Assembly: GCA_963794025.1 (NCBI GenBank)
Contig: CAWCCK010000033.1
Coordinates: 89,836 to 153,835, forward strand
Direction of reading: 5' to 3'
DNA: 64,000 nucleotides
From: Ignavibacteriota bacterium
GTDB lineage: Bacteria; Bacteroidota; Ignavibacteria; Palsa-1295
Within the stretch, counting starts at the first letter, position 1. Every line of letters begins with the position of its first letter. Made by a program: the position numbers and the translations under genes. The notes under the pieces are model-generated. The model saw only the letters and a list, made by a program, of their open reading frames with translations, made no database searches and had not been told where the DNA came from. Below, in pieces: positions 13,271 through 42,260 of the stretch.

Positions 13271-13302
13271 TGTTCTATTTTACTATAAAAATTTTATAAA
13301 GT

Positions 13303-13448: not shown

Positions 13449-13470
13449 TGTTTATGATTTCGCATGTCTG

Positions 13471-16400: not shown

Positions 16401-16872
16401 CCACAACGTAATCGGTACCCCAGCCGATCGTGGGAATGATATAGGAACCGTCCGATGTGTACGGATTATGGGACAGATCGTACACCGCAAGATCAGCCGT
16501 ATTGGAATAGACGTGAATCACTTTATTTTCTGCAATGCCGCTCGATTCCATCTCCCAGAATTCGGGAATTTTGTAACTCGAAATCTCATAGGCTGTTACC
16601 GGTATGGGAGTTATAGCGCCAGCAACTCCACCTACATATTGCGATGCCACGAACGCCGTGCAATTCTGATCCGATGTAATGTAAATACGCATATACTTCC
16701 CGCCGAGATCGATGCCCCAATAATTCGATTGCATCGCAAACCAAAAATCGCGGCCTTGTGCAAAGGTGGAATCGTGCTTGAGCGTGCTGACGCTGCTCGA
16801 AAGCTGCGCGTGTGCTGTTGTGGATGCCGCAAGCATAAGCGCCGCAGCGAGTAGGATAGATGTTCGTTTCAT
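13471..16872 (-). CDS. Giant T9SS surface protein, paralog 3
   Basis: 1133 aa, with the same architecture and CTD as paralogs 1, 2 and 4. Confidence 0.8.
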   Translation of the reverse strand: MKRTSILLAAALMLAASTTAHAQLSSSVSTLKHDSTFAQGRDFWFAMQSNYWGIDLGGKYMRIYITSDQNCTAFVASQYVGGVAGAITPIPVTAYEISSYKIPEFWEMESSGIAENKVIHVYSNTADLAVYDLSHNPYTSDGSYIIPTIGWGTDYVVAAYGSLFEGGGSYGFDLPSTMMVVANQDSTVFSFTPPCDCRSSTSGNDAGDPNSTIIVFFADSTYTFTLNRGQCMEFMPVKSEADTGFDMTGTIIHANKPVGVEGGSVCPNIPADYPYCDHVEEMIPPIRTWDETYYATSPVQPPGETQKDAAMYLFISSQPGQTILRQTCDSSLRTECIIPKQFGVFWDELSLGQKFTSTAPFLVVQYLNGATYPDGNNGLGDPAEVVIPSRDQFTKNVVFETPLSVGNIVPYDDYAQIICRVDDAKNVLFDHKGILGFGAVCIDDTFEIFNIPHIAPSVHEVTSDSGVGVYIYGYGYDETYAWGSTEQCKSFQSPDTAAPLATISTECLESFIHLSDTGALASKLDMIRLDSVYNMNFETDLNWVEGSETDTSGYSMTVVNPSKPGILIVSVFDCAGNHTTIRSAYTPIIDSMKPPLQNLGTWLSGPANIRFDTLYNTGQAVFDISELHLLKGNVGFSLFDSIGGPLDLSPLQPGERRLIKITFEAIETIPEFDSIIYGNSCWERSVALIGSGGQANFFVTSQSWPNAVLTQPPTCYPKTVTIFNFSTDTLTIDKAFWKDAFHFHAVSTFPITIPPAPASAQFTIEYCPDSNSLMTPDGTEGSWTSPDVLEGLTEVPHFDSLTGSAVAPSETFTQSIDTTFDCVLASETATSAFTITATGTAPSTIARIAQYDSINFFNLTGTLDNGVSWNPVTTAQTLTPGQTALISVNYIVPDSNNVGFGDNFIAIDGFGDTIGGGPLFLTVNVNFNAGTLNPPSQTFVLPGFQVNNPALTTSSVALQNTARNAPLIVDTIALQELNQYNPAFTFSLPAGVTFPDTLPVGGTLPLTLDFNDSLFDVVKQQTQLIFTTNACAQISETLTAIVAGAGVKETIIPSLDATILPTDDGRALQIILPTNISGSVNFLLVNVLGESVLRSTFGVGTENIDASSLPRGVYFYRLTSGQMSQSGKVILGE

Positions 16873-16897
16873 TGTTGTGTGTTAAAAAATCTGATAT

Positions 16898-19222
16898 TTA
16901 TTCTCCCAAAATAACCTTCCCACTCTGGCTCACTTGTCCCGAAGTTAGCCGGTAGAAATACACCCCTCGCGGCAGCGAAGAAGCATCGATATTTTGCGTT
17001 CCCGCGTTGAACGTAGAGCGCAGTACGCTTTCGCCGAGCACATTGGAAAGCTGGAATGTTATCGGAGCATTCACATCAGATGGAGGGATTATTTCTAAGG
17101 AGCGGCCATCGCTCATGGGAAGGATCGTAATTTGGAACGATACATTTGCAGCAACCGACTCATTCTGTTGCCCGGAACCAATAACGGCCACAGAAATGCT
17201 GTCGCAGTCATTGCCAGCAATAATGCTATCGACGGAGGCCGTCTTTGTGTTGGCCTGAAATTGAATTTCTATCACTCTGCGTCCACCCGTCGGGATCGGA
17301 GATAGATCGAGCGGCCCGCCCGTGCTATCGAACAGCGAAAATCCGACATTGCCATCTCGCAAATGCAGCACGCTCAGATCGAACGGAGCTTGCCCTTGAT
17401 TGATGATGGTATCGAACGCGACATTCGGGGAACCTGAAATCCAAACGCCAAGATTTTGTAGCGGCGGCTCGATCTCGATGAAATTCGGTTTGTACGTGGA
17501 AGTAACCGTCGTTTCATTCCCAGCCAGATCGAACACATCCACAATGAGGATTGCGGGCAGAGCCGGATCGACCACATTGATGCTATATCCGCTGGTATCG
17601 GCTCCCGATCCTTCGATCCAGTCGTTATCGACGTTGAAACTCATATTATAGACCGAATCGAGCAGAATTTCGCCAAGCCCAGTTTGTGTATCGGTGCTGT
17701 TCGGCAGGAACCCGGAATCGCTAAGATGAATGAACGCCCTGTAGCACATACTGCTCGTATCGACGTGTGGTGGGATGGTATCCGGGGAATTAAACAGCGG
17801 GGCTGCGCTCAAAAAAGACCATGCGTAAGCATTATTAAAGCCGTAGCCATAGATATAAACCCCCACGCCGGAATCACTGTTTATCTCATGCGTACCCGGT
17901 GCAATATGCGGTATGTTATACACTTCGAACGTATCATCAATGGGCTGCGCTCCATAACCAAGAATGCTTTTATCATCGAAGGTTACATTCTTGTCGTTCA
18001 CATTACAAATGATATTCGCGTAATCGTCATAAGGAACGATAGTGCCGACAGCGAGCGGTGTTTCCAGTGTGACTGTTTTTGCATATTGTTGGAGGGTAAG
18101 AATAGAAAATTCTGACGGGCCTCCAATGCCATTTATGCTATCCGGATAGGTTGAGCTATTGATATACGCAACAACTAAAAACGGTGCGCTGCTATAGAAC
18201 TTTTGCGCGAGTTCCAATTCATCCACAAATACACCGTATTGATTTGCTATCACGCACTCAACCTGATCGGTCGAATTATATTCATGGCGAAAAATTGTTT
18301 GGTTCGGCTTGGACGCAATAAATACATAGCGCGTATAATCATGGTCAGTCTCGCCGACTGGCTCAGTGACACTTGCCGCGTAGTTGGTAGTGCTCCAGGA
18401 ACGAATGGGTGTGATTGCACTGCACACGAAATTACCCTCAGTATAACCGGCTGGAATATCTGCCAGCATACATCCTCCGATCACGCTAATGGGACGATCC
18501 GCATGAATCAAGGTTCCTGTCAGATCGAAATTATCTGCGTCGACCGCAAAGACGGGCATAAGCTGCATGGATTGGCCTCGATTCAGCGTGACGCTGAACG
18601 GCACTCCTGCCGGAAACGCTACGACCATCGAACTGGAATCCCCAGCGTCAGTGCCGCTTGTACTCTTCCTGCAATTGCAGGAAGGCGTGATGGTGACGGT
18701 GGTGTTATCTTCGGTTGCAGTGATGGTGCATTCGGAAGGATAGTCGAACTGATTACCGCCGGCCTCGTACAACGAACCATACGCAGCCACAACATAATCG
18801 TTACCCAAGCCGACCGATGGAATAAGATAGGAACCATTAGACGAGTAGGTGTTATACGACAGGAAACTGACCGAGATATTCGTGCTGATGGAATAGACAT
18901 GAATCCCCTTGCTCTCGGCGATGCCGCTCGATTCCATTTCCAGCGTATCGGGAACCTTGAAGGCCGAAATCGTATTTGCCGTGACGGGCACCATGGTCGT
19001 GCTTCCATTCAGCGACACATAAGCATTGCAACTAGTTTGGGAAGTAATATAAATACGAATGAATTTACCGCCCAAATTCTCGCCCCAATAATTCGACGGC
19101 AGCGCGAACCAAAAATCGCTGCCGGACGTGTATTTTTCGGAAGTGACGGTGCTCGAAAGCTGCGCGTTAGCCGTGCCGATGGAGAGGCTTAGAATTGCTG
19201 AGAGCAGAAGTAATTTTTTCAT
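16898..19222 (-). CDS. Giant T9SS surface protein, paralog 4 (first gene of the tandem array)
   Basis: 774 aa with a signal peptide, the same N-domain motifs (YIYGYGFNNAYAW) and the same CTD. Only 25 nt separate it from paralog 3. Confidence 0.8.
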   Translation of the reverse strand: MKKLLLLSAILSLSIGTANAQLSSTVTSEKYTSGSDFWFALPSNYWGENLGGKFIRIYITSQTSCNAYVSLNGSTTMVPVTANTISAFKVPDTLEMESSGIAESKGIHVYSISTNISVSFLSYNTYSSNGSYLIPSVGLGNDYVVAAYGSLYEAGGNQFDYPSECTITATEDNTTVTITPSCNCRKSTSGTDAGDSSSMVVAFPAGVPFSVTLNRGQSMQLMPVFAVDADNFDLTGTLIHADRPISVIGGCMLADIPAGYTEGNFVCSAITPIRSWSTTNYAASVTEPVGETDHDYTRYVFIASKPNQTIFRHEYNSTDQVECVIANQYGVFVDELELAQKFYSSAPFLVVAYINSSTYPDSINGIGGPSEFSILTLQQYAKTVTLETPLAVGTIVPYDDYANIICNVNDKNVTFDDKSILGYGAQPIDDTFEVYNIPHIAPGTHEINSDSGVGVYIYGYGFNNAYAWSFLSAAPLFNSPDTIPPHVDTSSMCYRAFIHLSDSGFLPNSTDTQTGLGEILLDSVYNMSFNVDNDWIEGSGADTSGYSINVVDPALPAILIVDVFDLAGNETTVTSTYKPNFIEIEPPLQNLGVWISGSPNVAFDTIINQGQAPFDLSVLHLRDGNVGFSLFDSTGGPLDLSPIPTGGRRVIEIQFQANTKTASVDSIIAGNDCDSISVAVIGSGQQNESVAANVSFQITILPMSDGRSLEIIPPSDVNAPITFQLSNVLGESVLRSTFNAGTQNIDASSLPRGVYFYRLTSGQVSQSGKVILGE

Positions 19223-19596: not shown

Positions 19597-21641
19597 TTAT
19601 TGACTTAGTCTAACGGAATTGATTTCCGCACCTTGCCCTGCTTGGACGCACTCGCGTACTTTGTCGCGGATGCCTTCGCGGGTGAGGCCGACATCGGCGA
19701 GCAACCCTGCCGGCGCGCCGTGTTCGATGAAGGTATCGGGCAACCCAATGGCGAACGGATGAGGAATTGCCGATGAGGGGTGCAGGTGGGAACGTTCCGC
19801 GTAAAATTCGGCGACGGCGCTGCCGAAACCGCCGTTAACCGTTCCCTCTTCGAGCGTGATGATATATTTGAACCGCGCGGCCAGCGCATCGAGCAGCGCG
19901 GCATCCAGCGGCTTAACATAGCGTGCATTCGCCACGGCAACGGAAATACCTTCCCGATCTAGAGTCTTCGGCAGCTTTGATGGCATCGTAAAGCAATGGG
20001 CCAACACCGAGGATAACAGCGTCTTGACCATCGCGCATCATTTCGCCTTGACCGATGGGCAGCGTGCGGAACCCTTTATCGGCCAACGCCACGCCAATGC
20101 CCGCGCCGCGAGGGTAGCGTATCGCGATTGGCACCGTGGGAATTACGAATTACGAATTGCGAATTACGAATTGGGGACGATAGGTCATCGGAAGAATCAA
20201 TATTTTCGTTCGTAATTCGTAATTCGTAATTCGTAATTGGCAGCGTAGCAGTATAAAGCATGTCCCTAAGTTCCTGTTCGTCTTTGGGAACCATGATCGT
20301 CATGTTCGGAATGAGGCGGAGATACGCAAGATCGAACGCGCCGTGATGCGTGGGGCCGTCCGCGCCGACGAGTCCGGCGCGATCCATCGCAAACACGACG
20401 TTTAAGTTTTGCAATGCGACATCGTGAATGATCTGATCGAACGCGCGCTGAAGAAACGTTGAGTAGATCGCGCAGACGGGAATGAATCCCTCCGTTGCCA
20501 TTCCTGCGGCAAAGGTGACGGCGTGCTGCTCGGCAATGCCGACATCGAAGAATTTGTCTGGAACTTCTTTTTGCAGGATGTTCAGTCCCGTGCCATCTGG
20601 CATAGCGGCGGTAATGCCAACCACTTTGGGATTCATTTTGCAAATTTCGACCATCGCTTTACCGAATACTTTCGTGTATTCCGGCGGCTGCGGCGCGGTG
20701 ACAGGCTTTGTAACGGCAACGCCGGTGATCTTATCGAACGCGCCGCTCGCGGCATGATATTTCTGCACATGGGACTCCGCAGGCGCGTAGCCGTGTCCTT
20801 TTTCTGTGATGACATGCAGCAAGAGCGGCCCGCTTTGGTTCTCCAAAAATTGAAGCATTTCTACGAGCTTCACCACATTATGCCCGCTGACCGGTCCGAA
20901 ATACTTGAAGCCGAGGGCTTCGAACATCATTCCCGGCGTCATCACGGCTTTCATCGCATCGACGAGTTTGGAACCTGCGTAACGCAAGCGGCTGTGACCA
21001 TCGAGCACATCCCACACCTGATCTTTTATTTTGCGAAGCGCAGGATTGGTGAGGAGGGAATTAAAATGTTCGTGCATCGCCCACACATTCGGCGCAATGG
21101 ACATTTGGTTATCGTTGAGGATGACAAGAATATTCTTCTTCAGCATCCCGCAGTTATTCAACGCCTCGTACGCAATGCCACCGGTCATGGAACCATCTCC
21201 GATCACGGCTGCGACTTTATAGTTCTCTCCATTGTAATCACGCGCGGTTGCAATGCCAAGCGCGGCGCTGATGGAAGTCGATGCATGTCCCGCGCCGAAG
21301 ACATCGTATTCGCTCTCTTCGCGTTTCAGAAATGGCGCGAGGCCGTCTTTTTTGCGAATGGTCGAGAGCCGATCTTTCCTTCCCGTTAAAATTTTGTGCG
21401 GATACGCCTGATGGCCGACATCCCATATCAGCTTATCCTTCGGCGTGTTGAGCGCATAGTGCAGTGCAACGGTCAGCTCGACGACACCCAACCCCGCGCC
21501 GAAATGCCCGCCGGTTTGCGCGATGGTATCGATGAGATATTCGCGCACATCCGCGCTGATGGCTTCGAGATCGCTAACGGGGTGCTTCCGCAGGTCTTCC
21601 GGGGTGTTGATGCGGTCGAGGAGGGGGTAGGAATTCGTCAT
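19597..21641 (-). pseudogene. dxs: 1-deoxy-D-xylulose-5-phosphate synthase, disrupted (heptamer-hairpin insertion plus two +1 frameshifts)
   Basis: Unmistakable Dxs sequence (GGHFGAGLGVVELTVALHY, DVGHQAYPHKILTGR, GDGSMTGG) runs in frame A to ...MLYTATLP. It continues in frame B (TVPIAIRYPRGAG...AIKAAE) and then in frame C (TLDREGISVAVANARYVKPLD...). The shifts are at ~20135-20150 and ~19970-19980. Confidence 0.8.
20140..20238. repeat. Heptamer-arm hairpin element inside dxs
   Basis: The left arm (GAATTAC-type heptamers, 33 nt) is identical to the arm in xseA at 27321-27353. The complementary right arm is ttcgtaattcgtaattcgtaattcgtaatt. About 100 nt are inserted between codons LP and TVPIAIRYPRG. 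Confidence 0.85.
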
Positions 21642-21841
21642 AAGGTGTATGAGTAACGAGTAACGTGTACCGAGTTTGGGTGTTTCAAAACTCGGTATTC
21701 GGTTTCATGGCTCGTTGCTTAGAATAAATCCTCAGAAACAGGGAAAACGTTCACTCTATATTATTGGCCTTTAGAAACTAAGAATTATATTCTTGACGAA
21801 TTGGTTTTGGTCAAATTCAAACCATTTTATTGAACAAATTT

Positions 21842-23602
21842 ATGGAATCAGTCTCACATCCCGGACGGCCCCCCCGCTCTTCAAAACACTTAATAAATAT
21901 TATTGCAACTACACGGCGCAAACAGGTCAAGTCAGGGATTTCAGCATCCTCGCCTGACAATCCTACATATGTCCTATTTCTTGGGGCCGGAGCAAGTGTA
22001 ACAAGTGGAGTAAAAACAACTACTCAGATGATTGATGAATGGCGTGATAGCCTCTGGAAATCGCAAGGTAGCGACGATCGTGAAATATTTTTAAAGCAGT
22101 TCCTTTGGTATGGGCAGCAAGAAGAATATTCGTCATTATTTGAGTTAGTTTATGACCTTCCAAGTCAGCGAAGGGATTATATTGAAACATGTCTTGCAAA
22201 AGCTTCCCCGTCGTGGGGTTATATCTATTTGGTAAATTTTATTCGACACGGAGTGTTTAATACTATTTTTACAACGAATTTCGATGATTTATTGAATGAG
22301 GCTTGTTATAAATTTTCAAGTGAAGTTCGCCCAATTGTTTGCTCCCATGACTCCAGCATTAAAACAATACGAGTGGCTTCTAAAAGGCCTAAAATTATAA
22401 AGCTTCATGGCGATTTCTTATATGATGATATCAAGAATACGTCGAACGAGCTTGAGACTCTCGAGAATAACATGCGAGAGAAATTTAGGCAATACGCAAG
22501 CGAACACGGATTTATTTTTGTGGGATACGGCGGGAATGATCGCTCGATTATGGATGCCCTTAATGTACTTTTGCAAAGCAAAAATAATTTTCCTCATGGG
22601 ATTTATTGGTGTATTTTAAAAGGGTCTAAGATTCATCCAAACGTAGAAGCCCTTACCCGTTTCCCAGCCTTTAATCTTGTTGAGATAGCTGGCTTCGACT
22701 CGTTTTTCGCGGAAATGCGAGGTCGATTAGAACTGGAATTGCAGCCTGAAGTTTTCGATCCATATGTTGCTCTGAGAGACGCATTAAATGGATTCGTTGA
22801 AAAGGCAAAAATTAGTTCCGATGGGAATGAAATCATCGACAAGGATATGGATCGTCTAGCGTCAAATATTGAACGGATGGAGCGTGCATTAGATGGCACT
22901 ACTGAGAAAATGATTTTTGATGCGTCCTCGGATTCAAAGATTCCCGTTCAGCTTGAAGGGAGTATAACGGAAATTCCAGTGCCATTCCGATTTTTGGCAC
23001 AGGCGCAAGAACGAAAAGGCAATATTGAAATTGCCCAAAAATACATGCTTAAACAACTTGATACTGCACCGACGAGGGCAATGTTTGAGGCATCTTTCGA
23101 ACTCCTACTCAAAAAGCCGAATTTGGAATTTCAAGCGAAATTGGTAAAACATCTGTGTGATTCAACCGAGCTTCTTGCAAAAGATTCCTCCTTGGGAGTT
23201 AATATGGCTGTCAAATTGATGGGGATTGAACAATATGATGATGCCGTTAATATTCTCCAGTCGGGATTTGAGGCAAGTAGAAAATCGGACGGGACTTCTG
23301 CCGGGGATCTCGAATTCTATATTATTAACATGGCTCTGATCAAAAGACTCCGTGGGGTGCCACTGACAGAGGAGCAAGTGGGAACCCTGGAGGCTATTGT
23401 GAGTAGAAATGATATTGGGCGCATTACATTTGCTTCGCTACTACTTCTTGATGAGTTCGGAGCGGCCGAGGATGTGCTTAAGAAGTTAATTCTTAACAAA
23501 AAGGCAGAGAAGGAACTTGCTACGGCTCCCATTATGACGTTGATGGCTGGGCATATCACAGACTCGATCGTGATTTCGTGGATTGAAAATTCAACCAAAT
23601 AA
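21842..23602 (+). CDS. SIR2-like (SIR2_2 family) domain protein with ~250-aa alpha-helical C-terminal domain; candidate NADase defence effector
   Basis: Motifs YVLFLGAGASVTSG, IFTTNFDDLLNEA, IIKLHGDF and FVGYGGNDRSIMD are typical of defence-type SIR2 domains. The gene is AT-rich relative to its flanks. The ORF opens at TTG 21830; the first ATG is at 21842. Confidence 0.65.
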   Translation: MESVSHPGRPPRSSKHLINIIATTRRKQVKSGISASSPDNPTYVLFLGAGASVTSGVKTTTQMIDEWRDSLWKSQGSDDREIFLKQFLWYGQQEEYSSLFELVYDLPSQRRDYIETCLAKASPSWGYIYLVNFIRHGVFNTIFTTNFDDLLNEACYKFSSEVRPIVCSHDSSIKTIRVASKRPKIIKLHGDFLYDDIKNTSNELETLENNMREKFRQYASEHGFIFVGYGGNDRSIMDALNVLLQSKNNFPHGIYWCILKGSKIHPNVEALTRFPAFNLVEIAGFDSFFAEMRGRLELELQPEVFDPYVALRDALNGFVEKAKISSDGNEIIDKDMDRLASNIERMERALDGTTEKMIFDASSDSKIPVQLEGSITEIPVPFRFLAQAQERKGNIEIAQKYMLKQLDTAPTRAMFEASFELLLKKPNLEFQAKLVKHLCDSTELLAKDSSLGVNMAVKLMGIEQYDDAVNILQSGFEASRKSDGTSAGDLEFYIINMALIKRLRGVPLTEEQVGTLEAIVSRNDIGRITFASLLLLDEFGAAEDVLKKLILNKKAEKELATAPIMTLMAGHITDSIVISWIENSTK

Positions 23603-23632
23603 AAATGGCGACCTCCACGGTCGCCATTTTTT
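23601..23632 (+). terminator. Rho-independent terminator of the SIR2 gene
   Basis: aaaaatggcgacc tccac ggtcgccattttt is a perfect stem with flanking A and T tracts, and it overlaps the stop codon. Confidence 0.8.
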
Positions 23633-23833
23633 AATTCTCGAATTGAGGGGGTTCGGTAGGCATAAATTATTTTCCTTTCGTAATTCAAAGACAAAAACGG
23701 ATGGGGCTATTCAGTGGTTCCGTCATCCCGCACATCAAAATATTATTAACTGTTGATGGGTTATGGTGCCATCATCTTAACTTACGTTAGACGACAAAAC
23801 CTTATCTTTTTAGACTAAAATCCTCGATTTACA

Positions 23834-23925
23834 AAATTATTACATGCCATAAGTCGTTGTAAGTCAAGCATTTACGGTGTTTTGCAAAATATCTATACTA
23901 TAATACAGATATTTGGGAAAACTAA
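23834..23925. repeat. AT-rich ~90-nt direct repeat, copy 1 (contains palindrome aaatatct...agatattt)
   Basis: It aligns with 23979-24072. The shared core is tttgcaaaatatctata-tata-ta-agatatttgggaaaa. The TTTG ... gATATTTG arrangement resembles a Bacteroidota -33/-7 promoter. Confidence 0.6.
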
Positions 23926-23978
23926 TTCCGTTTTGTTGACACTAATTCCTATTTTCGCAATAAAAAACGGGTTTTCAG

Positions 23979-24072
23979 AAATTATTACAAACTATAACTA
24001 CATGTAAATCAATCGATTAACGTATGTTTGCAAAATATCTATATTATAGTATAGATATTTGGGAAAAGCATT
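23979..24072. repeat. AT-rich ~90-nt direct repeat, copy 2 (perfect 11-bp inverted repeat aaatatctata/tatagatattt)
   Basis: See copy 1. It ends 10 nt before the xseB stop codon. Confidence 0.6.
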
Positions 24073-24081
24073 TCTATGAGA

Positions 24082-24351
24082 TTAAAACAGGCCTTCAGAC
24101 TCGGGCAAATCGTTCATTTCAGAAGTGTCGGAAGTGGTCATTTCCTCATGCACAGCCGCGAGCTTTTCCACGCGTAGCTCGGCATCGGTGAGGACGGATT
24201 TGAGCTTTGCCGAAAGCGTCATCGCTTCTTCATAAAGCGTGAGCATCTCGGCGAGCGGGACGTTGCCCTGTTCCAGCCGATCGACGATGGTGGAAAGGCG
24301 TTCGAATTCGGATTCGAAGGAGGGGGTGGTGTTTTCTTGTTTGCGTGGCAC
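24082..24351 (-). CDS. xseB: Exodeoxyribonuclease VII small subunit
   Basis: 89 aa. FESEFERLSTIVDRLEQGNVPLAEMLTLYEEAMTLSAKLKSVLTDAELRVEKL is the canonical XseB helical pattern. Confidence 0.85.
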   Translation of the reverse strand: MPRKQENTTPSFESEFERLSTIVDRLEQGNVPLAEMLTLYEEAMTLSAKLKSVLTDAELRVEKLAAVHEEMTTSDTSEMNDLPESEGLF

Positions 24352-24394
24352 GATTTATGGAATGACTTACAAATTATATTTTTGTTGAAGGGGG

Positions 24395-25015
24395 TTATCC
24401 TTCCCGCACATTGACTCCAAGAGCATCGGTAAGCCCCTTAATATCGAGAAACATACTGCGATATCGAGTCTTATCGGTCAATTTTTCAGATGGCCTAACG
24501 AATTGAAATCCGAATCTCTCATAAAATTTTGAAACATCATAGACGCGATCAGGAATCTCGGCATCGAATAGAGCATCTACGGTTACAAAACGAACCCCTA
24601 CTTTAGGAGCAATGATCCTTGCGATATATTCTAAAGCCCACTCAACCAACATGGAGCCTACTCCTTTTGCTTCCATATCGCGAGCCAGTCTTCCGATTTT
24701 AACTGCGGGAAGAGTTCCATACGGAATTCCTTCCGATTTGAGCAGATCGTTAGCATCTTTTCTACGGCGAGGTATTGCATCGGCGCATAGGGTTATGTAA
24801 CCGAGCAAACGATCGTTTTCGCGTATAATCCATGCCTTCCCTACATGCTCTTTTACGTCCCGTGCAATGTCGGCATTCCAGTACTCCACAAACTCAGCTC
24901 TATCACAACGAAAACCCCGACCAGAATTAATATGATCGGGGTTCCATAGTTCTATTTCCAATTTCGCGGAGTCAGGCATGCTGTGTTCTCGGATCGCTTC
25001 CAAATTGGTGCTCAT
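24395..25015 (-). CDS. GNAT-family N-acetyltransferase, toxin-like (TacT/KacT-type context)
   Basis: GNAT core: LGYITLCADAI...PAVKIGRLARDMEAKGVGSMLVEWALEYI...FYERFGFQFV. The start is uncertain: ATG 25015, or ATG 24979, which overlaps the stop of the upstream small ORF (ATGCCTGA). Confidence 0.6.
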   Translation of the reverse strand: MSTNLEAIREHSMPDSAKLEIELWNPDHINSGRGFRCDRAEFVEYWNADIARDVKEHVGKAWIIRENDRLLGYITLCADAIPRRRKDANDLLKSEGIPYGTLPAVKIGRLARDMEAKGVGSMLVEWALEYIARIIAPKVGVRFVTVDALFDAEIPDRVYDVSKFYERFGFQFVRPSEKLTDKTRYRSMFLDIKGLTDALGVNVREG

Positions 25016-25166
25016 TGGAATTATTATTCTGCTTTGCAACGATTCGTTCAATCGTTGCGGCATATTCAGCATTGATAATAGGCTTGCCAGTGGACAATGC
25101 CTCTTCAACGGCCTTAGCCTGCTTCTTTGAAAGCGGCTGAGTCACGGTATGTGCTGGATATTTCAT
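24972..25166 (-). CDS. Small ORF upstream of the GNAT gene, possible antitoxin
   Basis: 64 aa, same strand, overlapping the GNAT start region. No recognisable motif; called on position only. Confidence 0.3.
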   Translation of the reverse strand: MKYPAHTVTQPLSKKQAKAVEEALSTGKPIINAEYAATIERIVAKQNNNSNEHQFGSDPRTQHA

Positions 25167-25260
25167 ATTTGCCCGCTCCTTTCTGTAAAATGTTGTTAAA
25201 TTTGACTAATTCCCAAACGAGTAGCTACTCGCCTAAGTTTCATGCCAGTCTGAGTGTTCT

Positions 25261-25345
25261 TTCAATCGAACCTTACCGTAATTCTTCCATCGGCGAAGAT
25301 GAGGATGCCGTTTTTTTCATCGCGCGTGAGGAGTTGCGAGAGGCG
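25261..25345. repeat. 85-bp duplicate of the xseA 3' end (direct repeat with 26697-26781)
   Basis: 81/85 nt are identical to the last 27 codons plus stop of xseA (RLSQLLTRDEKNGILIFADGRITVRFD*). It brackets the 1.35-kb Panacea module. Confidence 0.9.
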
Positions 25346-25435
25346 TTTGAATTCGGATTCCGCGTTGCATTCCATATTAAATTTTTAGGGTATGTAACAA
25401 GTGTTTTTTAAAGCGAAGTAGTATAGGATGGGAGG

Positions 25436-25867
25436 TTATGTGTGCTTTAATTGCGATGGACATACTTCGTGCTCTGGATCCCACCAAAGCAAGCGACAAA
25501 CTGGCCCGAGTCTAATGCCGTGAAACCTTCTCTCACCATCAACTGTAAAGGAAAAAATACTCTCTGTATCATCTTGATTAATTTCTTCAAGCCTTTTTTG
25601 AGCTACTGGCGATAGGCTCGATAAATCAATGGAATGATTTCGTTTACCCTTAATCTCTGACCATTTCATACTCTCGAATTTTTTAATTCGATCAAGAATA
25701 GCATTGAAGTCATCCATGCTCATTTTAGTAAAACACCACGGGCCGCCAATATCAATAATTTGGAACGACCATGTCGGCTTCTCATCATCAGAACTACCCT
25801 GAGGTGCACGAGGTAACTTTTTCTCGTACTCACTAAGTACCGATTTGGGTTTCAGGTTTCCACCCAT
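25436..25867 (-). CDS. Uncharacterised 143-aa protein, putative toxin partner of the Panacea antitoxin
   Basis: Its ATG lies 1 nt after the stop of the upstream DUF4065 gene. The C-terminal segment IFSFTVDGERRFHGIRLGPVCRLLWWDPEHEVCP is reminiscent of RelE/ParE-fold toxins. This is an impression only. Confidence 0.45.
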   Translation of the reverse strand: MGGNLKPKSVLSEYEKKLPRAPQGSSDDEKPTWSFQIIDIGGPWCFTKMSMDDFNAILDRIKKFESMKWSEIKGKRNHSIDLSSLSPVAQKRLEEINQDDTESIFSFTVDGERRFHGIRLGPVCRLLWWDPEHEVCPSQLKHT

Positions 25868-25868
25868 C

Positions 25869-26345
25869 TTATCCCGGCAATGCGCTATAATACTCCATTA
25901 TGGCTTCATTCGTAATTTCGTTGTTTCCTCTCTCGCCGTCCGCAAGTCCGATTCGGGCGTTTCTCCATGGGTCTTCTCGGTGAGTAAGATCACTAAGCCA
26001 TTGCGAATCATGTTTTGCATAAAAAGCAATTATTCGGTCGATTGTGTCAGTCTGAGCTTGAGTAAGTTTCTTTGGATCGCCAGAGCATGAACGGATACTG
26101 TAAAATCCTTTATTAGCGAAATATAGGCTCGGTATAACGGGTCCATTTGCCCATGCCTCTATGCGGTCATTGAAAAGAGGCTTCTCGTCCCAAACCAACG
26201 ACCACACATGAGAATAATAGGTGAGCTTTTGTAGCTTTACGGCGGGAATTTCTCCCGTTTTTGAAAGAATATAGGACGCAACATCAAAAGCGTTAATGGA
26301 TGTAATTACTTCATTCGGCGCTTTCTCTGGATTTGATCGGCTCAT
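25869..26345 (-). CDS. Panacea (DUF4065/SocA-like) domain antitoxin
   Basis: VKLQKLTYYSHVWSLVWDEKPLFNDRIEAWANGPVIPSLY matches the conserved core of the DUF4065/Panacea domain. Confidence 0.65.
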   Translation of the reverse strand: MSRSNPEKAPNEVITSINAFDVASYILSKTGEIPAVKLQKLTYYSHVWSLVWDEKPLFNDRIEAWANGPVIPSLYFANKGFYSIRSCSGDPKKLTQAQTDTIDRIIAFYAKHDSQWLSDLTHREDPWRNARIGLADGERGNNEITNEAIMEYYSALPG

Positions 26346-26697
26346 TCTAAGAACAGAAAATATGTTTGACGAAAGGTTCCCTTTGTTGTTTTTGTAGTGT
26401 TTGTAACTTCATGTTTCTTTAGCTAAAGAAACACGAAGTGGGTTAAGTTACGTTCCTAATGATATTATACCCTTTTTGTTCATCTAAACTACAATAATGA
26501 TGGTAAACCTGTTCCCATTCCGTATCTTTCAATACTTTATGGACTTTTATGATGAATGGTGATTCCGAAATTATTCGGATTCGTAAGGTGACTCGTTTAG
26601 TACCTCAAGGAGAGGCAGAAGAGAGCAAAAAATGCCGAAGATTTGCATTAATACCTGTTGTAACAAGAATGCAAGAAGCAATTCATTATTATGGCTT

Positions 26698-28047
26698 TCA
26701 ATCGAACCTTACCGTAATCCTTCCATCGGCGAAGATGAGGATGCCGTTCTTTTCATCGCGGGTCAGGAGTTGCGAGAGGCGCGGGATGATTTCGCCGTCC
26801 GTTGATTCGAGGGCAGTAAAGCCGCGGTCGAGCACGCGGTCGGGATTCATCGCGGCGAGCTTGGCGGCGTCGCGTTCCAGTTTTAATCTGCGGCGTTCGA
26901 GGGAATGAATGACGGAACGCGAGGCATCCAATATCTCGGCATTCATTCGTTCCCGCAGGGTGCGAATGGCATTCGTCATAGCAAACACAAGGGAACGTTT
27001 ATCGGAAGCAGACTCAACGTCGCGTTTATAGTGCAAGATTATTTGTCGCATCTGACGTGTAAGTCCCACGCGGCTGCCGTTGAGCGCAGAGATTAGTTCC
27101 TCTTGGTTCGGCGTAGCAAGTTCAGCGGCTGCGGTTGGCGTGGGTGCGCGGAGATCGGCTACGAAATCGGCGATGGTAAAATCCACTTCGTGCCCGACAG
27201 CGCTGATGACGGGAATTTTCGAAGAAAAGATCGCGCGGGCAACAGCTTCCTCGTTGAAGTTCCACAAATCTTCTAAGGAACCGCCGCCTCGCCCGACGAT
27301 GAGGACATCAGGCCGGGGAGAATTACGAATTACGAATTGCGAATTACGAATTGTTTTTTTTACTTCGTCCTCATTCGTAATTTGAAATTCGTAATTCGTA
27401 ATTAAATTAAATTCCTGAATCGCGCGCGCGATCTCTAACTCTGCGCCGACGCCCTGCACGGCGCATGGGCGGACGATCACGCGGACGATGGGGTAACGGC
27501 GGCGGAGCGTGGTCAGAATATCTTGTAAGGCCGCGCCGTTTTCGCTGGTAACGATTCCGATGGTTTGTGGGAACCTCGGGATGGGCCGCTTGCGCGATTC
27601 TTCGAAGAGACCTTCGGCCATCAAGCGCGCATATCGTTCCTCATACGCTTGCTGTAGATCGCCGATGCCGCTGGGGCGCACTTGAAACACATCGAGCTGA
27701 TAATTCCCGCGCGGAGGATAGACTGTGAGCCTACCACGGCACACGACTTTCATTCCATCCTTCAGATCGAAATTAAGCGTTCGGCTTTTCCAGAATACGG
27801 AGGAGATCTGTGCGCCTTCATCTTTCAGCGTCCAATACCGGTGGCCGGAGCGATGGTCGATGAAATTCGAGATCTCGCCTTCGACCGTTACCTCCGGAAA
27901 CGCGCCTTCGAGCATATCACGAATAGATTTTGTGAGCGCGCTTACCGTGAGCGGGCCATCGCCGTTAGTAGATTCATCTTCCATTATTTCCGAATTATTA
28001 CGGAATAGAGAGGATTTTGCGGCTTTTTGGTAATAGTTGCGTGGCAT
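26698..28047 (-). CDS. xseA: Exodeoxyribonuclease VII large subunit with a 28-codon in-frame repeat insertion
   Basis: OB-fold N-terminus (VSALTKSIRDMLEGAFPEVTVEGEISNF...HRSGHRYWTLKD), the DVLIVGRGGGSLEDLWNFNEE motif and a coiled-coil C-terminus. The insert ITNYEFQITNEDEVKKTIRNSQFVIRNS is encoded by the heptamer hairpin. The start may be the internal ATG at 27984. Confidence 0.85.
   Translation of the reverse strand: MPRNYYQKAAKSSLFRNNSEIMEDESTNGDGPLTVSALTKSIRDMLEGAFPEVTVEGEISNFIDHRSGHRYWTLKDEGAQISSVFWKSRTLNFDLKDGMKVVCRGRLTVYPPRGNYQLDVFQVRPSGIGDLQQAYEERYARLMAEGLFEESRKRPIPRFPQTIGIVTSENGAALQDILTTLRRRYPIVRVIVRPCAVQGVGAELEIARAIQEFNLITNYEFQITNEDEVKKTIRNSQFVIRNSPRPDVLIVGRGGGSLEDLWNFNEEAVARAIFSSKIPVISAVGHEVDFTIADFVADLRAPTPTAAAELATPNQEELISALNGSRVGLTRQMRQIILHYKRDVESASDKRSLVFAMTNAIRTLRERMNAEILDASRSVIHSLERRRLKLERDAAKLAAMNPDRVLDRGFTALESTDGEIIPRLSQLLTRDEKNGILIFADGRITVRFD
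27320..27403. repeat. Heptamer-arm hairpin element, in-frame inside xseA (84 nt)
   Basis: aattacgaattacgaattgcgaattacgaattg ... cattcgtaatttgaaattcgtaattcgtaatt. The length is a multiple of 3 and there are no stops in the gene frame. Confidence 0.85.
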
Positions 28048-32691: not shown

Positions 32692-32779
32692 GAAAGTAAG
32701 AAGTAAGAGGTAAGAGGTAGACTCGCCGCACTGCGACTTCTACCTCTTAGCTCTTAGCTCTTAGCTCTTACCTCTTACT
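32692..32779. terminator. Heptamer-arm hairpin between convergent genes (probable bidirectional terminator)
   Basis: gaaagtaagaagtaagaggtaagaggtaga ... tctacctcttagctcttagctcttagctcttacctcttactt. The arms are built of GAGGTAA/GAAGTAA heptamers and their complements. Confidence 0.6.
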
Positions 32780-33220
32780 TTACGTGTTCGTCAACGCATC
32801 CGCCATTGCTGCAGCAAGCCGGAACGATAAATGCAGGGAACCATGTCGCTCCTTCGCTTCGATAAGCGAGAGCGAGGCTGTGATGAATCCGCCCTGTCCG
32901 TAGTGGACATATTTCGCCTCGTAATACGCGGCAGATTTATAGTTGATGAGAAAGGTCATGATACTCGCTTCCAGCGCAAGTGGGATGGGCGGACACGATG
33001 CGTGAAGAATGAGATGGTCGTCCTCCGTGGAGCCGGGAACTGGAACCCATTCTTGGAATTCACTGACGCCGGGCGTAACGGATTCCGGCTCGCTCGAAAG
33101 CGTAACGGATTGAATAGGCAGCGCGCCAACCGGCACACTTGGGAACGCGGCAGTGAGGTCGGGAACTGTAATCCACGCATCCGAAGGCGATGCGCGATAT
33201 TGAAGATAGAGATTGGTCAT
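32780..33220 (-). CDS. Hypothetical protein (phage head-tail region by position)
   Basis: 146-aa ORF co-oriented with the head module. No recognisable motif. Confidence 0.4.
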   Translation of the reverse strand: MTNLYLQYRASPSDAWITVPDLTAAFPSVPVGALPIQSVTLSSEPESVTPGVSEFQEWVPVPGSTEDDHLILHASCPPIPLALEASIMTFLINYKSAAYYEAKYVHYGQGGFITASLSLIEAKERHGSLHLSFRLAAAMADALTNT

Positions 33221-35811: not shown

Positions 35812-37095
35812 TTACGACGCGCTCGTACTGAGCACCGCCAGATACCCCGGCTGGCCAACGCCGAAGGCAATGCGTTCGGTCATGCGGAGCAGCTGGAGAT
35901 CGTTGGTGAATGCGTTGACGCTGGCAGCGGTGGCGTCGTAGGACACGCGGAGTTCCATACCGCCGCGGGTTCCCAGCCAGCATCCGGCGGTTTGCAGGTT
36001 CCCAAAGAGCGCAAACGGCGTGCTCGGCGTGGTGTTCGCGCTATATCCGTTGATAAGCACTCCGTTCGGGAGCGAAACCACCGGATAACCGTGGAACTGT
36101 AAGTTCGTCGCATTGAACCCATTCGCGCCGTTGATGTTCGGATCGTTGGAGGTGGCAATATCCCACAGATAGCGACTTGCGGAATCTTTTTTCTTCAAGA
36201 GATCGGTCAGCGTGTTCTGCTCGACGAACAAACACGCGCCGCGCTGCTGCGCAGGGCCGACGGACTGCACCAGATTGATGAGATCGTCCAAAGTAATATC
36301 CGGGAAATGCGTTTTACCGGAGGTAGATGCGCCGCCGAGATACGTCAGGGTCGTTCCCGCCGTCTGTAAAATTCCCGTGAACGGCGCCCCGGTTCCGTTG
36401 AAGACCTGCATGTCTTCCTGCTGTCCGAACACCTCGACGAAAATACGCAGGATCGTATTATAGACGTCAATGTTCGCGTCCATAAGCAGTTCGTTCGAGA
36501 TAGGATAGATCGCGGCGAGCTTTTGCGCGGTAAGCACCAGGCGACCGAAGGTTCCAGCGCTTGCCGGAATTGTGGTATCTTCGCCAACCCAGCTTACAGA
36601 AGGCGTACCCGTGAGCGTCGAAACATTCAGCACGTTCGTTTGCATTTGAATCTGCGCGCAATATTTTCTCGCGAACCCATATTGGTTCAACAGAAAGAGC
36701 ACGTCCGCATAAAATTCCTGCGGTACCAAGTAGCCGCCTGCAGAATTGGTTCCTTCGATCTGCGGCGCGAGCGTGCGTGTGTATTCCGGTTCGTAGGTTT
36801 GCATGATCGAGCGCAGCGTTTGGTGGTCGTTTGCACCGATGGCGTTGAAGAACCGGAACGTTTTTAGGATCTTTTCGCGATCATTTGTAAGGACGGGCTG
36901 CGCACGTCCTCCCCGGTGAACAACGGGTTCGTCGTTGGCCAAAGGGCCGGACGTGTGCAGCACGTCCCTACCAAGCGCGGAGATCGCGGAACGATCCGGG
37001 AGGGATTTTATTTTGCGATCGAGCGCTTTATCGATAATGGTATTGAATTCGTCGCGCGAGGCGGTAAGGGTGTTTTCGGTTTCGTTAATGGTCAT
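35812..37095 (-). CDS. Phage major capsid protein, HK97 family
   Basis: 427 aa. The central pattern ...TGTPSVSWVGEDTTIPASAGTFGRLVLTAQKLAAIYPISNELLMDANIDV... is typical of the Phage_capsid (HK97) family. Confidence 0.8.
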   Translation of the reverse strand: MTINETENTLTASRDEFNTIIDKALDRKIKSLPDRSAISALGRDVLHTSGPLANDEPVVHRGGRAQPVLTNDREKILKTFRFFNAIGANDHQTLRSIMQTYEPEYTRTLAPQIEGTNSAGGYLVPQEFYADVLFLLNQYGFARKYCAQIQMQTNVLNVSTLTGTPSVSWVGEDTTIPASAGTFGRLVLTAQKLAAIYPISNELLMDANIDVYNTILRIFVEVFGQQEDMQVFNGTGAPFTGILQTAGTTLTYLGGASTSGKTHFPDITLDDLINLVQSVGPAQQRGACLFVEQNTLTDLLKKKDSASRYLWDIATSNDPNINGANGFNATNLQFHGYPVVSLPNGVLINGYSANTTPSTPFALFGNLQTAGCWLGTRGGMELRVSYDATAASVNAFTNDLQLLRMTERIAFGVGQPGYLAVLSTSAS

Positions 37096-37121
37096 GTTGA
37101 AATTAAATTGGTTGTTTTATC

Positions 37122-37267
37122 TGTCATCCTGAGCGGAGCAATTCGACCGGAGGGAGAATTGCGAAGTCGAAGGATCTGGTGAGATTACCCGCAGAGGTGT
37201 ATTGCATGAGATCCTTCGACTGCGCGAGACTCCGCTATCGCTGCGTCTCGCTCCGCTCAGGATGACA
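37122..37267. repeat. Family-2 structured repeat
   Basis: Outer stem gtcatcctgagcg/cgctcaggatgac and central gtcgaaggatct/agatccttcgac hairpin. Side hairpins gcaattc/gaattgc and gcgagac/gtctcgc differ from the other copies but remain paired. Confidence 0.85.
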
Positions 37268-37408
37268 GGTGGATGGAACGTGTTGAACTGTGATTGAATA
37301 TGTGCAAGCAATTGATGTGTCGGGAATCGAATGCGCGCCCGACGAAGAAACAATTCCCACGAATTATGTGTAGTTTGTCGGCATGAATCTAAAAGAAGGA
37401 GACGCACC

Positions 37409-37999
37409 ATGAGGACGATCAGGATCTTCGAACATGTCTCGCTGGATGGCGTGATCGCGCCGACGGGCGATGACGAATTTGCGAATGGCGGATGGATGGT
37501 ATCGTACCGAACGCCGGCTGGGGCAGCGAAGCTCGCCGAGATACAGGGCACGGGCTTCGATCTGCTGCTTGGCCGCCACACCTACGATCAATGGGCCAGC
37601 TTCTGGCCGACGATGAAGGGCGGTCCGTTTGCGGACGGCCTGAACGCCGCGACGAAATATGTCGTGACGCACAGGCCGGAGGGCCTCGCATGGGGTCCCG
37701 TTGGGAACTTGGGAACGGATATTCTGGAGGGTATTCGCAGCCTCAAAGCAACGGAGGGGCCGGATCTGATCGTCTGGGGAAGTTCCACAGTGACGCCCGT
37801 GTTGCTCGAGGAGGGTTTGGTAGATGAAGTGGTGCTCATCGTTTATCCGATCTTGATGGGCGCGGGCAAACGCTTCTTTTCCGATAGCGTCGGCCCGCAG
37901 GAACTCGCGCTTGTCAGCACGATGGCTACGCCAACGGGCGTGCTTCTCAATACATACCGATACGTTGGATCGGTGCGTAGGGAACCTGCGGCGGGATGA
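37409..37999 (+). CDS. Dihydrofolate reductase-like (RibD C-terminal domain) family protein
   Basis: MRTIRIFEHVSLDGVIAP...LLLGRHTYDQWASFWP...LIVWGSSTVTPVLLEEGLVDEVVLIVYPILMGAGKRFF. The ATG is preceded by aaggag. Confidence 0.7.
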   Translation: MRTIRIFEHVSLDGVIAPTGDDEFANGGWMVSYRTPAGAAKLAEIQGTGFDLLLGRHTYDQWASFWPTMKGGPFADGLNAATKYVVTHRPEGLAWGPVGNLGTDILEGIRSLKATEGPDLIVWGSSTVTPVLLEEGLVDEVVLIVYPILMGAGKRFFSDSVGPQELALVSTMATPTGVLLNTYRYVGSVRREPAAG

Positions 38000-38073
38000 A
38001 AGCGGGTATCCATAGGAAGTAGGATCATGGGAATGCGGGAATGTTAGATAGTAGGAGTCGCGTTTTCCGTTTC

Positions 38074-38802
38074 ATGAAATGTGTATTGTTGGTGACGGTA
38101 CTTGTCCTTCTTGCGACGCGCTGTGAGGCGCAACGTTTCTATTACGGCATCACGCTTGGCGGCGACCTTGGGAATGAATCCGATGGAGCGCGATCGTTCG
38201 AGTATGGCAATAGCTGGTTCTATTCTCACAATGAAATCGAACCGGGCGGCGGTACTCTTTATTCGGAACTGGGACTCATTGCCGGATTCGAGGCGGATTA
38301 TCGTTTGAGCAATAGCTTTGCTCTTAGCGGAAGCGCGTTATTCGATCAAAAAGGAGTCGGCCTGAATTACATTTATACGACGGAAGCCAGTCCCGACCCG
38401 ATCGCCACTACGCACCAGGATAATACGCTGGACTATCTGGAGATACCTGTGCTCGTTAAGTGGAAACCGTTTGCCGAAGCTGCCGGCATTTTCCTTTTTG
38501 CCGGGCCGAGCGTTGGGTTCCTGCTTTCAGGTAAGGCGGTGTTAAGCCTGCAAATTGCGGGCGAAGGCAATCCTTCGATTCCACTCACGCAAAAGAATCC
38601 CAGTGTTTCGGCGGTTGCGGGAATTGGGTTTGGGTTCGATCTTAGCGAGAAGATGCGCTGTGAAATACGCGCGGCCTATGCCTGGGGACTCACGAACGAT
38701 TCATTCAGCGAGGCGACGAGTGAGCCGTACTATCGCGATCCCGTGTATAGTGCAACGGCCAGCGACATACGACTAACCGCGACCGTGTTGTTTCCCGGCT
38801 AA
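38074..38802 (+). CDS. Outer-membrane beta-barrel (porin-family) protein
   Basis: Signal peptide MKCVLLVTVLVLLATRCEAQ, alternating beta-strand pattern and a C-terminal aromatic end (...LTATVLFPG). Confidence 0.6.
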   Translation: MKCVLLVTVLVLLATRCEAQRFYYGITLGGDLGNESDGARSFEYGNSWFYSHNEIEPGGGTLYSELGLIAGFEADYRLSNSFALSGSALFDQKGVGLNYIYTTEASPDPIATTHQDNTLDYLEIPVLVKWKPFAEAAGIFLFAGPSVGFLLSGKAVLSLQIAGEGNPSIPLTQKNPSVSAVAGIGFGFDLSEKMRCEIRAAYAWGLTNDSFSEATSEPYYRDPVYSATASDIRLTATVLFPG

Positions 38803-38819
38803 TGCGGTATGTGGGAATG

Positions 38820-39392
38820 TTACTGAAGCAGCCATTCCAGCGTGTTAGCGATCGTTTTTTCGATCTCTTCGTCCGACAGGAGTGACTTATTGGAGTCCAC
38901 CGCATCCGGGTTCATCGGCAGCTCGACTTTGGAGCATTCGATGAGTTCCCATTCGGTGAAGGTATAACCGCCGAACTCATTGGCTTCATATTCGATGGGA
39001 CTGAATCCGATAGAATTAGCGGGAAGCATTCCCGCCATATCCATTTGATAGACTTGCTCGGCGAGCGGTGAAATATCGGCAGGCGCGTATTCGACAAGCG
39101 CGAATAATTCGTTTTTCGTTTGCTTGAGATCGAGGACGCGCCCGATGGTGCTAAGCAACGCTCCGCTCGCGCCATGCTGCCAGAGAAATTGCGGATTTTT
39201 GAGGAAGTTTTCTGCATCCATTCCCGCAATGACGAGCATATCTCCCGCACGATCGACGGCATTGGTGGCAAGTGTCAGCCACCGCTGACGTGGGGGTAAG
39301 GATGAAGGTTGAGGGATGAGGGATGAAGGTGGGGAAGCGGAAGATATAGTTCGGCTTTCAGAGAGAAGGGTTTTGTGTATGATTGTTTGCAT
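38820..39392 (-). CDS. Phage prohead protease (HK97 family) with heptamer-repeat-encoded N-terminal segment
   Basis: DMLVIAGMDAENFLKNPQFLWQHG...IGRVLDL...LPANSIGFSPIEYE... fits Peptidase_S78. The probable start is ATG 39392. The N-terminal PPSSLIPQPSSLPP is encoded by GGATGAA-type repeats at 39296-39345. Confidence 0.7.
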   Translation of the reverse strand: MQTIIHKTLLSESRTISSASPPSSLIPQPSSLPPRQRWLTLATNAVDRAGDMLVIAGMDAENFLKNPQFLWQHGASGALLSTIGRVLDLKQTKNELFALVEYAPADISPLAEQVYQMDMAGMLPANSIGFSPIEYEANEFGGYTFTEWELIECSKVELPMNPDAVDSNKSLLSDEEIEKTIANTLEWLLQ

Positions 39393-39523
39393 CAATTTAG
39401 ATGGGAAATTTAGGCGAAGGATGAAAGTATTTGTGCTGTGATTTAGAGGCGACTCAGGAAAAAGGCATATGACCGCTATCGCTTTGGTAGCGATGTATTG
39501 ATAAATTAGATATTGTATAAAAG

Positions 39524-41277: not shown

Positions 41278-41392
41278 TAGTTAGTTTAGAATCGGTTCGT
41301 TTTTCTGGACGGCATTTTACTACGCATGTTGCCCAAGCGCCGTACCCACCCCTCCCGCGAGCGGCCCCAGGCCCATGAGCGCGCGCTGTTCA

Positions 41393-42179: not shown

Positions 42180-42260
42180 GGTCTGATATTTTGGTTAGCA
42201 CAAGTTGTGCCGAAAATAGGAACACTTGTTATGCAAAAAGATTCAGTCAACCTTAGCAAA

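Follow-up and report, generated by a model that had tools for sequence, protein, structure and literature searches.

How do conserved housekeeping enzymes come to carry, inside their reading frames, hairpins built from tandem heptanucleotides? The question is raised by a 64,000-nt stretch of contig CAWCCK010000033.1 from an Ignavibacteriota bacterium (hereafter the window), in which such hairpins lie within xseA, dxs and a glgP-like gene. The closest homologues of the window proteins belong to Candidatus Kapabacteria/Kapaibacterium metagenome-assembled genomes (MAGs), which indicates a Kapabacteria-like host. The hairpins are probably copies of a class of small palindromic repeats that have spread into genes, where they are read through as extra loops at permissive sites that are used again and again. 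The three host genes are the following.

26698-28047, minus strand: xseA (exodeoxyribonuclease VII large subunit), intact, 449 aa; identified by Pfam Exonuc_VII_L and tRNA_anti_2 and by homologues
19597-21641, minus strand: dxs, spread over three reading frames by two +1 insertions (~20128 and ~19963); identified by Pfam (20076-21641 plus downstream pieces) and by orthologue alignment
55168-57447, minus strand: alpha-glucan phosphorylase (glgP-like), intact, 759 aa; identified by Pfam DUF3417 and Phosphorylase and by homologues

Heptamer-arm hairpins within and between genes

Arrays and arms were detected with Tandem Repeats Finder and an inverted-repeat search, and RNA folds were scored as z-scores against 200 shuffles. 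Tandem Repeats Finder detected period-7 arrays of 3.6-12 copies (units GAATTAC, GAATGAC, GGATGAA, AATGATG and AAGAATT). A set of them pairs as both arms of hairpins of 84-137 nt, with inverted-repeat arms of 24-31 nt and several copies in the 64 kb. The pattern (AATTACG)3, with at most 3 mismatches, matched the window 22 times, against 0.01 matches expected from shuffles. The heptamer-arm hairpins that the initial annotation had described from the letters of this DNA are therefore real, with strong representatives in all three genes:

27320-27403, minus strand: xseA hairpin of GAATTAC units, 84 nt, in frame; arms 31 nt, 94% complementary; loop 21 nt; z = -7.5
20140-20238, minus strand: dxs hairpin of GAATTAC units, stop-free, in an element spanning 20139-20240; arms 30 nt, 97% complementary; loop 38 nt; z = -9.0
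55432-55543, minus strand: hairpin at glgP site 2, alternating GAATGAC and GAATTAC units, in frame, in an element spanning 55423-55543; arms 28 nt, 96% complementary; loop 56 nt; z = -7.5
56222-56296, minus strand: decayed GGATGAA-type hairpin at glgP site 1, in frame; z = -2.3
43570-43706, plus strand: hairpin of AATGATG units at the 5' end, or N-terminus, of membrane-protein open reading frame (ORF) 43585-45336; arms ~29 nt; loop ~79 nt; z = -5.1
32693-32781: hairpin of AAGTAAG/GAGGTAA against CTCTTAG/CTCTTAC units, occupying the gap between two convergent genes; arms ~27 nt; loop ~35 nt; z = -4.9

Not one of 200 shuffles folded as well as the hairpins of xseA, dxs or glgP site 2. The xseA element, which encodes ITNYEFQITNEDEVKKTIRNSQFVIRNS, folds at -30.3 kcal/mol as RNA, and its earlier description as an 84-nt in-frame copy in an intact gene held. 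Two copies had also been proposed in glgP; the one at 55432-55543 is a strong hairpin, and the one at 56222-56296 proved to be only a degenerate one. The last two hairpins of the list are additions to those first reported, and the hairpin at 43570-43706 stands in place of N-terminal residues that relatives of ORF 43585-45336 possess. Overall, 5-6 of the 12 strong hairpins in this unbiased 64-kb window lie within ORFs. An Rfam scan of the window gave no match to a known RNA family.

Insertion into conserved proteins

The xseA, dxs and glgP segments are insertions into conserved proteins, not ancestral parts of them. Neither basal Kapabacteria nor other phyla have an insert at any of the four sites compared. 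The XseA insert lies between AIQEFNL and RPDVLIVGRGGGS, where basal Kapabacteria and Ignavibacteria-like sequences have 2-4 residues; the E. coli structure 8txr has 4 residues at this site, compared with 31 in the window. The Dxs insert separates MLYTAT from GPIAIRYPRG. At that point some 30 orthologues show nothing more than EYRK-like residues, and the E. coli structure 2o1s has 3 residues, compared with 35 in the window. In more distant Kapabacteria, as in other phyla, both glgP sites hold little or nothing, and the solved phosphorylase 9l6i lacks both inserts. The alignment with orthologues and structures that the initial annotation had suggested thus places lineage-specific inserts at short loops, and orthologues of other phyla lack them. 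In an AlphaFold model of the window XseA (mean predicted local distance difference test score, pLDDT, 80), the insert is a coil between helix 202-215 and strand 248-253, and pLDDT falls below 50 at residues 221-225 and 227-239, which make up most of the insert.

The same inserts occur in assemblies made independently, namely a JGI contig, a forest-soil contig from ENA, a MAG assembled with MEGAHIT and long-read contigs, which argues against the assembly chimeras that had been raised as a possible objection. When the 35-aa peptide of the dxs insert was searched with phmmer against 1.84 billion representatives, it gave 0 hits, the query being too short and of too low complexity to be informative.

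Variant units at would-be stop codons

Because three CGTAATT units hold TAA in all three frames, neither strand of a perfect hairpin has a frame free of stops. The in-gene copies carry a variant unit exactly at the would-be stop codon. TCG CAA stands at this position in xseA and dxs, as it does in a membrane protein encoded by L091, another Kapaibacterium MAG, and TCG TCA in glgP, whose alternating GAATGAC/GAATTAC units avoid both TGA and TAA; P0129 has K, not Q, at that codon. When two perfect units were demanded on each arm, as in the pattern of our GTDB genome scan, 122 of the 123 hairpins from other genomes, among the matches listed, lay outside long ORFs. Variant units at stop codons are as predicted by selection on read-through, and they argue against removal of the inserts from the mRNA. 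From these frames we infer that the inserts are translated; a junction-spanning peptide would lie, for example, within EFNLITNYEFQITNEDEVK.

The dxs reading frame

The statement of the initial annotation that copies lie inside ORFs without breaking them applies to xseA and glgP, which are intact, and not to dxs, which has two +1 indels in the window. The frame shifts 8-10 nt past the element and again ~165 nt further. A DNA alignment with five orthologous loci attributes this to two single-base insertions, GGT[G]CCAATC and GAAGA[C]TCTAG, both outside the arms, and the insert itself is in frame in the relatives L003, L126 and L156. Assembly errors are the likeliest cause of the indels, a pseudogene being the alternative: another window gene, encoding an acyl-CoA dehydrogenase, is also split into overlapping ORFs (60477-61439 and 61162-61683), and the contig names of several relatives suggest polished long-read assemblies. 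Programmed frameshifting or bypass at dxs was considered and rejected on three grounds: the arms do not contain the indels, relatives lack them, and the window has a further split gene.

Different palindromic families at the same sites

Across genomes, four sites were each occupied by 3-4 palindromic families, with equal boundaries and no shared remnant:

xseA site: GAATTAC hairpin in the window and L001; G+C-rich palindrome in L124 and L125; other palindromes in L126 and L156
dxs site: GAATTAC hairpin in the window, L003, L126 and L156; GTAGCGCAAAC repetitive extragenic palindromic (REP) sequence in L002; GTAGGGGCCAATGGC REP in L124; GGAGAAT hairpin in L125
glgP site 2: GAATKAC hairpin in the window; 10-residue remnant in L127; GGATGAA hairpin in L128
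ArnT/PIG-U-like membrane protein site: REP 44010-44070 in the window; GAATTAC hairpin in L091; AATGGCG hairpin in L127; another REP in L128

The window itself contains two copies of a GTAG-type REP-like palindrome:

44010-44070, plus strand: in frame (IVAQTSVCDFSPGSQTKVCAT) in membrane-protein ORF 43585-45336
45928-45988, minus strand: second copy, within ORF 45349-46065

In a pairwise identity matrix, L126 has the most divergent dxs, yet the hairpin is common to L126 and the window. The dxs hairpin therefore looks ancestral at its site, where it was replaced at least three times. Reuse of the sites may reflect either a target preference of palindromes for existing hairpins or a high flux of insertions that passes through a selection filter.

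Conservation and decay of the arms

Intact arms differed by 0-1 changes in ~60 nt between genomes, compared with 16-20% in the flanking coding DNA:

xseA, window versus L001: arms 0/61 changed; flanking 600 nt 122/600; loop 4/21; p = 2e-6
dxs, window versus L003: arms 0/60; flanks 93/598; p = 7e-5
dxs, window versus L126: arms 1/59; flanks 101/598; loop 26/39; p = 4e-4

The decayed hairpin at glgP site 1 behaved differently: between the window and L127 it was 17.9% different, with 24 additional gap columns, compared with 8.5% for the rest of the gene (p = 0.007). Since the arms are constant at the nucleotide level while the decayed copy outpaces its gene, the peptide is not the conserved thing. 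What holds the arms constant would be either selection for the hairpin itself or gene conversion involving other genomic copies. Compensatory arm changes were sought in L156, and the changes seen there do not pair in register.

This constancy bears on how the copies are related. One arm is identical over 35 nt between xseA and dxs (27319-27353 = 20139-20173), slightly beyond the 33 nt from which a recent common origin had been deduced. The identity was correct; the recent origin does not follow from it, because 21 metagenome contigs carry this very 33-nt arm, in every case in non-coding arrays, and because arms are near-invariant even between genomes with such divergent flanks. The 35-nt arm, with the same variant unit, is found in three genes, namely xseA, dxs and that of the L091 membrane protein, and in several genomes. 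The idea of a special coding-competent subfamily is weakened by the 21/21 non-coding metagenome matches of the 33-nt arm.

Distribution across phyla

At least 120 stretches with the hairpin pattern were recovered from GTDB representative genomes. Among the matches listed, the same AATTACG hairpin recurs across phyla, mostly between genes. Bacteroidota carriers include cultured Chitinophaga and Ferruginibacter as well as Bacteroidales, Prevotellaceae, Flavobacterium, Saprospiraceae, Hymenobacteraceae and Kapaibacterium MAGs; the others are Acidobacteriota (Pyrinomonadaceae, Chloracidobacterium), Chloroflexota, Planctomycetota, Cyanobacteria, Endomicrobium and Patescibacteria. The presence of the hairpin in cultured Chitinophaga makes its origin, and any binding factor, experimentally approachable. 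A scan of viral contigs gave 6 stretches only, so phages carry the hairpin, rarely. Where variant units are in register with AATTACG arrays, the AATT of positions 1-4 is retained in 83-94% of them, compared with 36-65% for positions 5-7.

We counted how many hairpins fall within long ORFs in the two sets of loci; sampling was biased both ways, and the counts are indicative only:

Kapabacteria, 207 kb: heptamer hairpins in long ORFs 8/15; other hairpins 10/35
Other phyla, 816 kb: heptamer hairpins in long ORFs 3/153; other hairpins 0/70

In-gene heptamer hairpins are not confined to Kapabacteria, since the Chloroflexia MAG L051 carries in-frame heptamer-arm hairpins at 2515-2605 and 6841-6911, with units GTATTGC and CGGCAGT, in two ORFs that are glycosyltransferase-like as judged from their translations alone. 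In the metagenome contigs L140/L144 and L146, AATTCGT-type arrays adjoin GGGGATT-type and CCCAATT-type heptamer arrays, which suggests that the G-rich heptamer repeats of Nostoc and Xanthomonas belong with the NNN-AATT repeats.

Origin of the inserts

According to the explanation we favour, the repeat would have the form of two tandem-heptamer arms (AATT plus three variable bases) around a unique spacer. The class would be widespread between genes in many phyla and, in Kapabacteria and at least some Chloroflexia, would also enter genes, where a copy could persist only if its length kept the frame and variant units removed TAA and TGA. Read through, it would yield a 25-40-residue, probably disordered loop at a permissive position such as a short surface loop or a domain linker. 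Such positions would be reused, with resident palindromes being replaced by other families or decaying by mutation. [quoted passage not shown]

Several results weigh against this explanation. The dxs hairpin looks ancestral to lineages ~20% apart, and recent insertion does not explain its intact arms. Alignments revealed no target-site duplication and no shared terminal or target motif at the xseA, dxs and glgP boundaries, and no clean pair of empty and filled sites was found among near-identical genomes. Unlike a classical MITE family, all 123 copies inspected have different spacers. A Pfam scan of the window ORFs yielded no transposase, REP-associated tyrosine transposase (RAYT) or other mobilising candidate; likewise, an all-against-all comparison of ORFs around 120 cross-phylum loci yielded no recurrent neighbour, the largest family covering 8 loci. 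The case for translation, in turn, consists of open frames.

A wider proposal is that the copies belong to one cross-phylum system, in which sequence-specific machinery would recognise AATT cores at a 7-nt spacing, maintain uniform arms and exchange palindromic cassettes at fixed hairpin sites, those in essential genes among them. We regard this as doubtful; if true, such machinery would represent a new mode of mobility or maintenance of small elements, distinct from RAYT and REP doublets (REPINs) and from classical MITEs.

It is unlikely that the host, rather than just tolerating the hairpins, keeps them for a function that they have themselves, such as an RNA or DNA structure, or a heptamer array bound by a protein, acting on translation, mRNA stability or DNA metabolism. 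Such a function would account for arms that stay near-invariant even at synonymous sites while loops and the decayed copy drift, for an AATT core conserved across phyla, and for arrays that adjoin the glgP start and stop codons. However, close relatives swap the hairpin for unrelated palindromes or lose it while keeping the gene, basal lineages live without any insert, and no known RNA family matches.

We consider it improbable that the arrays are immobile and arose in place, by replication slippage of native heptamer-like sequence followed by template switching that makes the inverted arm. A unit-like native GAATTTA is present at the xseA boundary, the EYR codons of empty dxs sites could, by our own reading, spell GAATACCG, some arrays are direct only (57451-57534 and 39300-39326), and copy number differs between relatives, which speaks for slippage. 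Against it, one 35-nt arm, variant unit included, is shared by xseA, dxs and another genome's membrane protein, the same unit and its variants recur across phyla, and unrelated palindromes such as the GTAG REPs stand at the same sites.

Removal or skipping of the inserts in the mRNA, whether intron-like or by ribosome bypass, is very improbable. The hairpins are indeed very stable and lie within ORFs, and the window dxs is out of frame just past its element. Nevertheless, intact copies always keep frame and avoid stops by unit substitutions, which would be needless if they were removed, and the dxs frameshifts are single-base insertions outside the arms that five relatives lack, in a window where another gene is frameshifted too. 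Finally, that the repeats are assembly artefacts is scarcely credible: the window and several relatives appear to be long-read assemblies with residual indels, as contig names and split genes indicate, but independent projects and different assemblers, short-read MEGAHIT contigs included, yielded the same inserts at identical sites, and the intergenic form is present in genomes of cultured Chitinophaga.

Relation to known repeats

The heptamer hairpins are real and well supported, and are best filed as a variant of protein-coding palindromic repeats such as the Rickettsia palindromic elements (RPEs). The latter are in-frame, fold-compatible palindromic inserts in unrelated housekeeping genes (Ogata et al. 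2000, 2002, as summarised in PMC10969869). The two have in common palindromes of ~100 nt (roughly 100-150 nt in RPEs, 84-137 nt here) in many copies, located in frame in functional genes at positions that the fold tolerates, with several families per genome (PMC10969869). They differ in that the arms here are tandem heptamers and the spacers unique, whereas RPE families are summarised as having a consensus and a conserved peptide (PMC10969869). In addition, our host is a free-living, Bacteroidota-related (Kapabacteria-like) organism rather than a Rickettsia, the density is higher, the sites are reused by other families, and the hairpin type is cross-phylum and mostly intergenic. Protein-coding palindromes, treated until now as a Rickettsia peculiarity, would thus extend to a free-living lineage.

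The short tandemly repeated repetitive (STRR) sequences of cyanobacteria, with units CCCCAGT, TTGGTCA and CAACAGT, resemble the present arrays in having head-to-tail 7-nt units in at least 3 copies (here 3.6-12), although none of the units of the window (GAATTAC, GAATGAC, GGATGAA, AATGATG, AAGAATT) is among them. The TAACTGA repeats of Beggiatoaceae, Cyanobacteria and Bacteroidetes are heptamers with a patchy cross-phylum distribution, often beside start codons (PMC4679880). STRR and TAACTGA arrays are described as direct and mainly intergenic, with other units (PMC4679880), whereas here inverted arms are paired and many copies are coding. The initial annotation had aptly named RPEs and STRRs as the closest precedents; convergent heptamer arrays are additionally known from Xanthomonas, where GGGAATC arrays, inverted and close together, number 70-75 per genome and can form stem-loops (PMC4692102). 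Their units are, however, G-rich and quadruplex-forming, they are under-represented within coding sequence, and no in-frame inserts are reported for them (PMC4692102). Our findings link long-unexplained bacterial heptamer repeats of the STRR kind to a defined hairpin architecture with a conserved AATT core.

REPs and REPINs, which RAYTs mobilise, are likewise short dispersed hairpins, often in inverted doublets, and REPs are extragenic by definition (PMC3116915, PMC3733652). A REP hairpin measures 20-40 nt and has a conserved GTAG or CGTC tetranucleotide at its foot, a tag that the heptamer hairpins lack; RAYTs are Y1 HuH transposases. Co-resident GTAG-tagged REP-like families (GTAGCGCAAAC... 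and GTAGGGGCCAATGGC...) occupy the same in-gene sites in relatives. With MITEs the hairpins share terminal inverted repeats (24-31 nt here), and small, non-autonomous inverted-repeat elements occur occasionally in frame, as in intragenic enterobacterial repetitive intergenic consensus (ERIC) sequences and Coxiella QMITE2 (PMC5896051, PMC10969869). The differences are that neither a target-site duplication nor a conserved interior nor a related insertion sequence was found, a parent insertion sequence elsewhere being possible, and that the in-gene density, ~6 in-gene palindromes per 64 kb, is much higher than for in-frame MITE fusions. Full-text literature searches turned up neither a report of genes that contain heptamer-arm hairpins nor any account of such repeats from Kapabacteria, and searches by repeat strings and peptides gave no match. 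In essential enzymes, the same loops are contested by several repeat families, and this constitutes a natural experiment on how proteins tolerate and acquire new loops. For annotation, the inserts account for odd low-complexity segments (ITNYELRITN, IRNSQFVIRNS) in many MAG proteins.

Direct arrays and neighbouring genes

Three further heptamer arrays were found at the edges of genes, one of them in a phage-type gene:

57451-57534, minus strand: 12 heptamers in direct orientation, read as TTAATTC on the gene strand, ending 3 nt before the glgP start codon
55149-55180, minus strand: heptamer array containing the glgP stop codon
39300-39326, minus strand: 3.9 direct GGATGAG units, not a hairpin, within the N-terminal extension of the prohead-protease ORF
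38820-39551: prohead-protease ORF, with a weak Pfam match

The last array corresponds to a copy of the element that the initial annotation had placed at 39296-39345. That assignment is withdrawn: the GGATGAG array has no inverted partner and does not fold, and the start codon of the N-terminal extension that hosts it is uncertain. At the site of the 12-copy array before the glgP start, L128 has a heptamer hairpin, and copy number differs among relatives. The arrays at the glgP start and stop codons recall the start-codon-proximal TAACTGA repeats of Beggiatoaceae. Downstream of glgP lies a near-perfect 15-nt tandem repeat (TACGCGGCGCGAACC, 7.5 copies, 55015-55127), and related GCGTAGGTCGG repeats are present at the same place in L127 and L128.

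A low-GC island (0.40-0.44) at 21800-26400 separates dxs from xseB/xseA. Its cargo comprises a SIR2_2-domain ORF (21830-23602), a GNAT-like ORF and a SocA/Panacea antitoxin-like ORF (25869-26345), and it contains an inverted repeat at 23880-24067 (41 nt, 88% complementary, 106-nt spacer). The genes xseA, xseB and dxs are contiguous in L001 and L126, and other cargo stands between them in L124, L125 and L156 (SIR2_2; AAA_14 and DUF4143). The interval looks like a variable hot spot for defence genes. A Type III restriction-modification pair was found at 47231-51423, consisting of a Res helicase-like ORF (47231-49741) and an N6_N4 DNA methylase (49738-51423).

Phage-like capsid, S78 protease and portal genes span 35812-43561 and are syntenic with relatives near xseA. 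Between the protease and the portal lie a DUF3226 ORF (39524-40144) and an AAA_15/AAA_21 ATPase (40144-41277). This block may be a domesticated prophage or a defence insertion. The interval 6907-19222 holds a tandem of four IgGFc_binding paralogues that bear type IX secretion sorting tails, and nested perfect palindromes (10409-10565 and 13296-13455) separate the paralogues.

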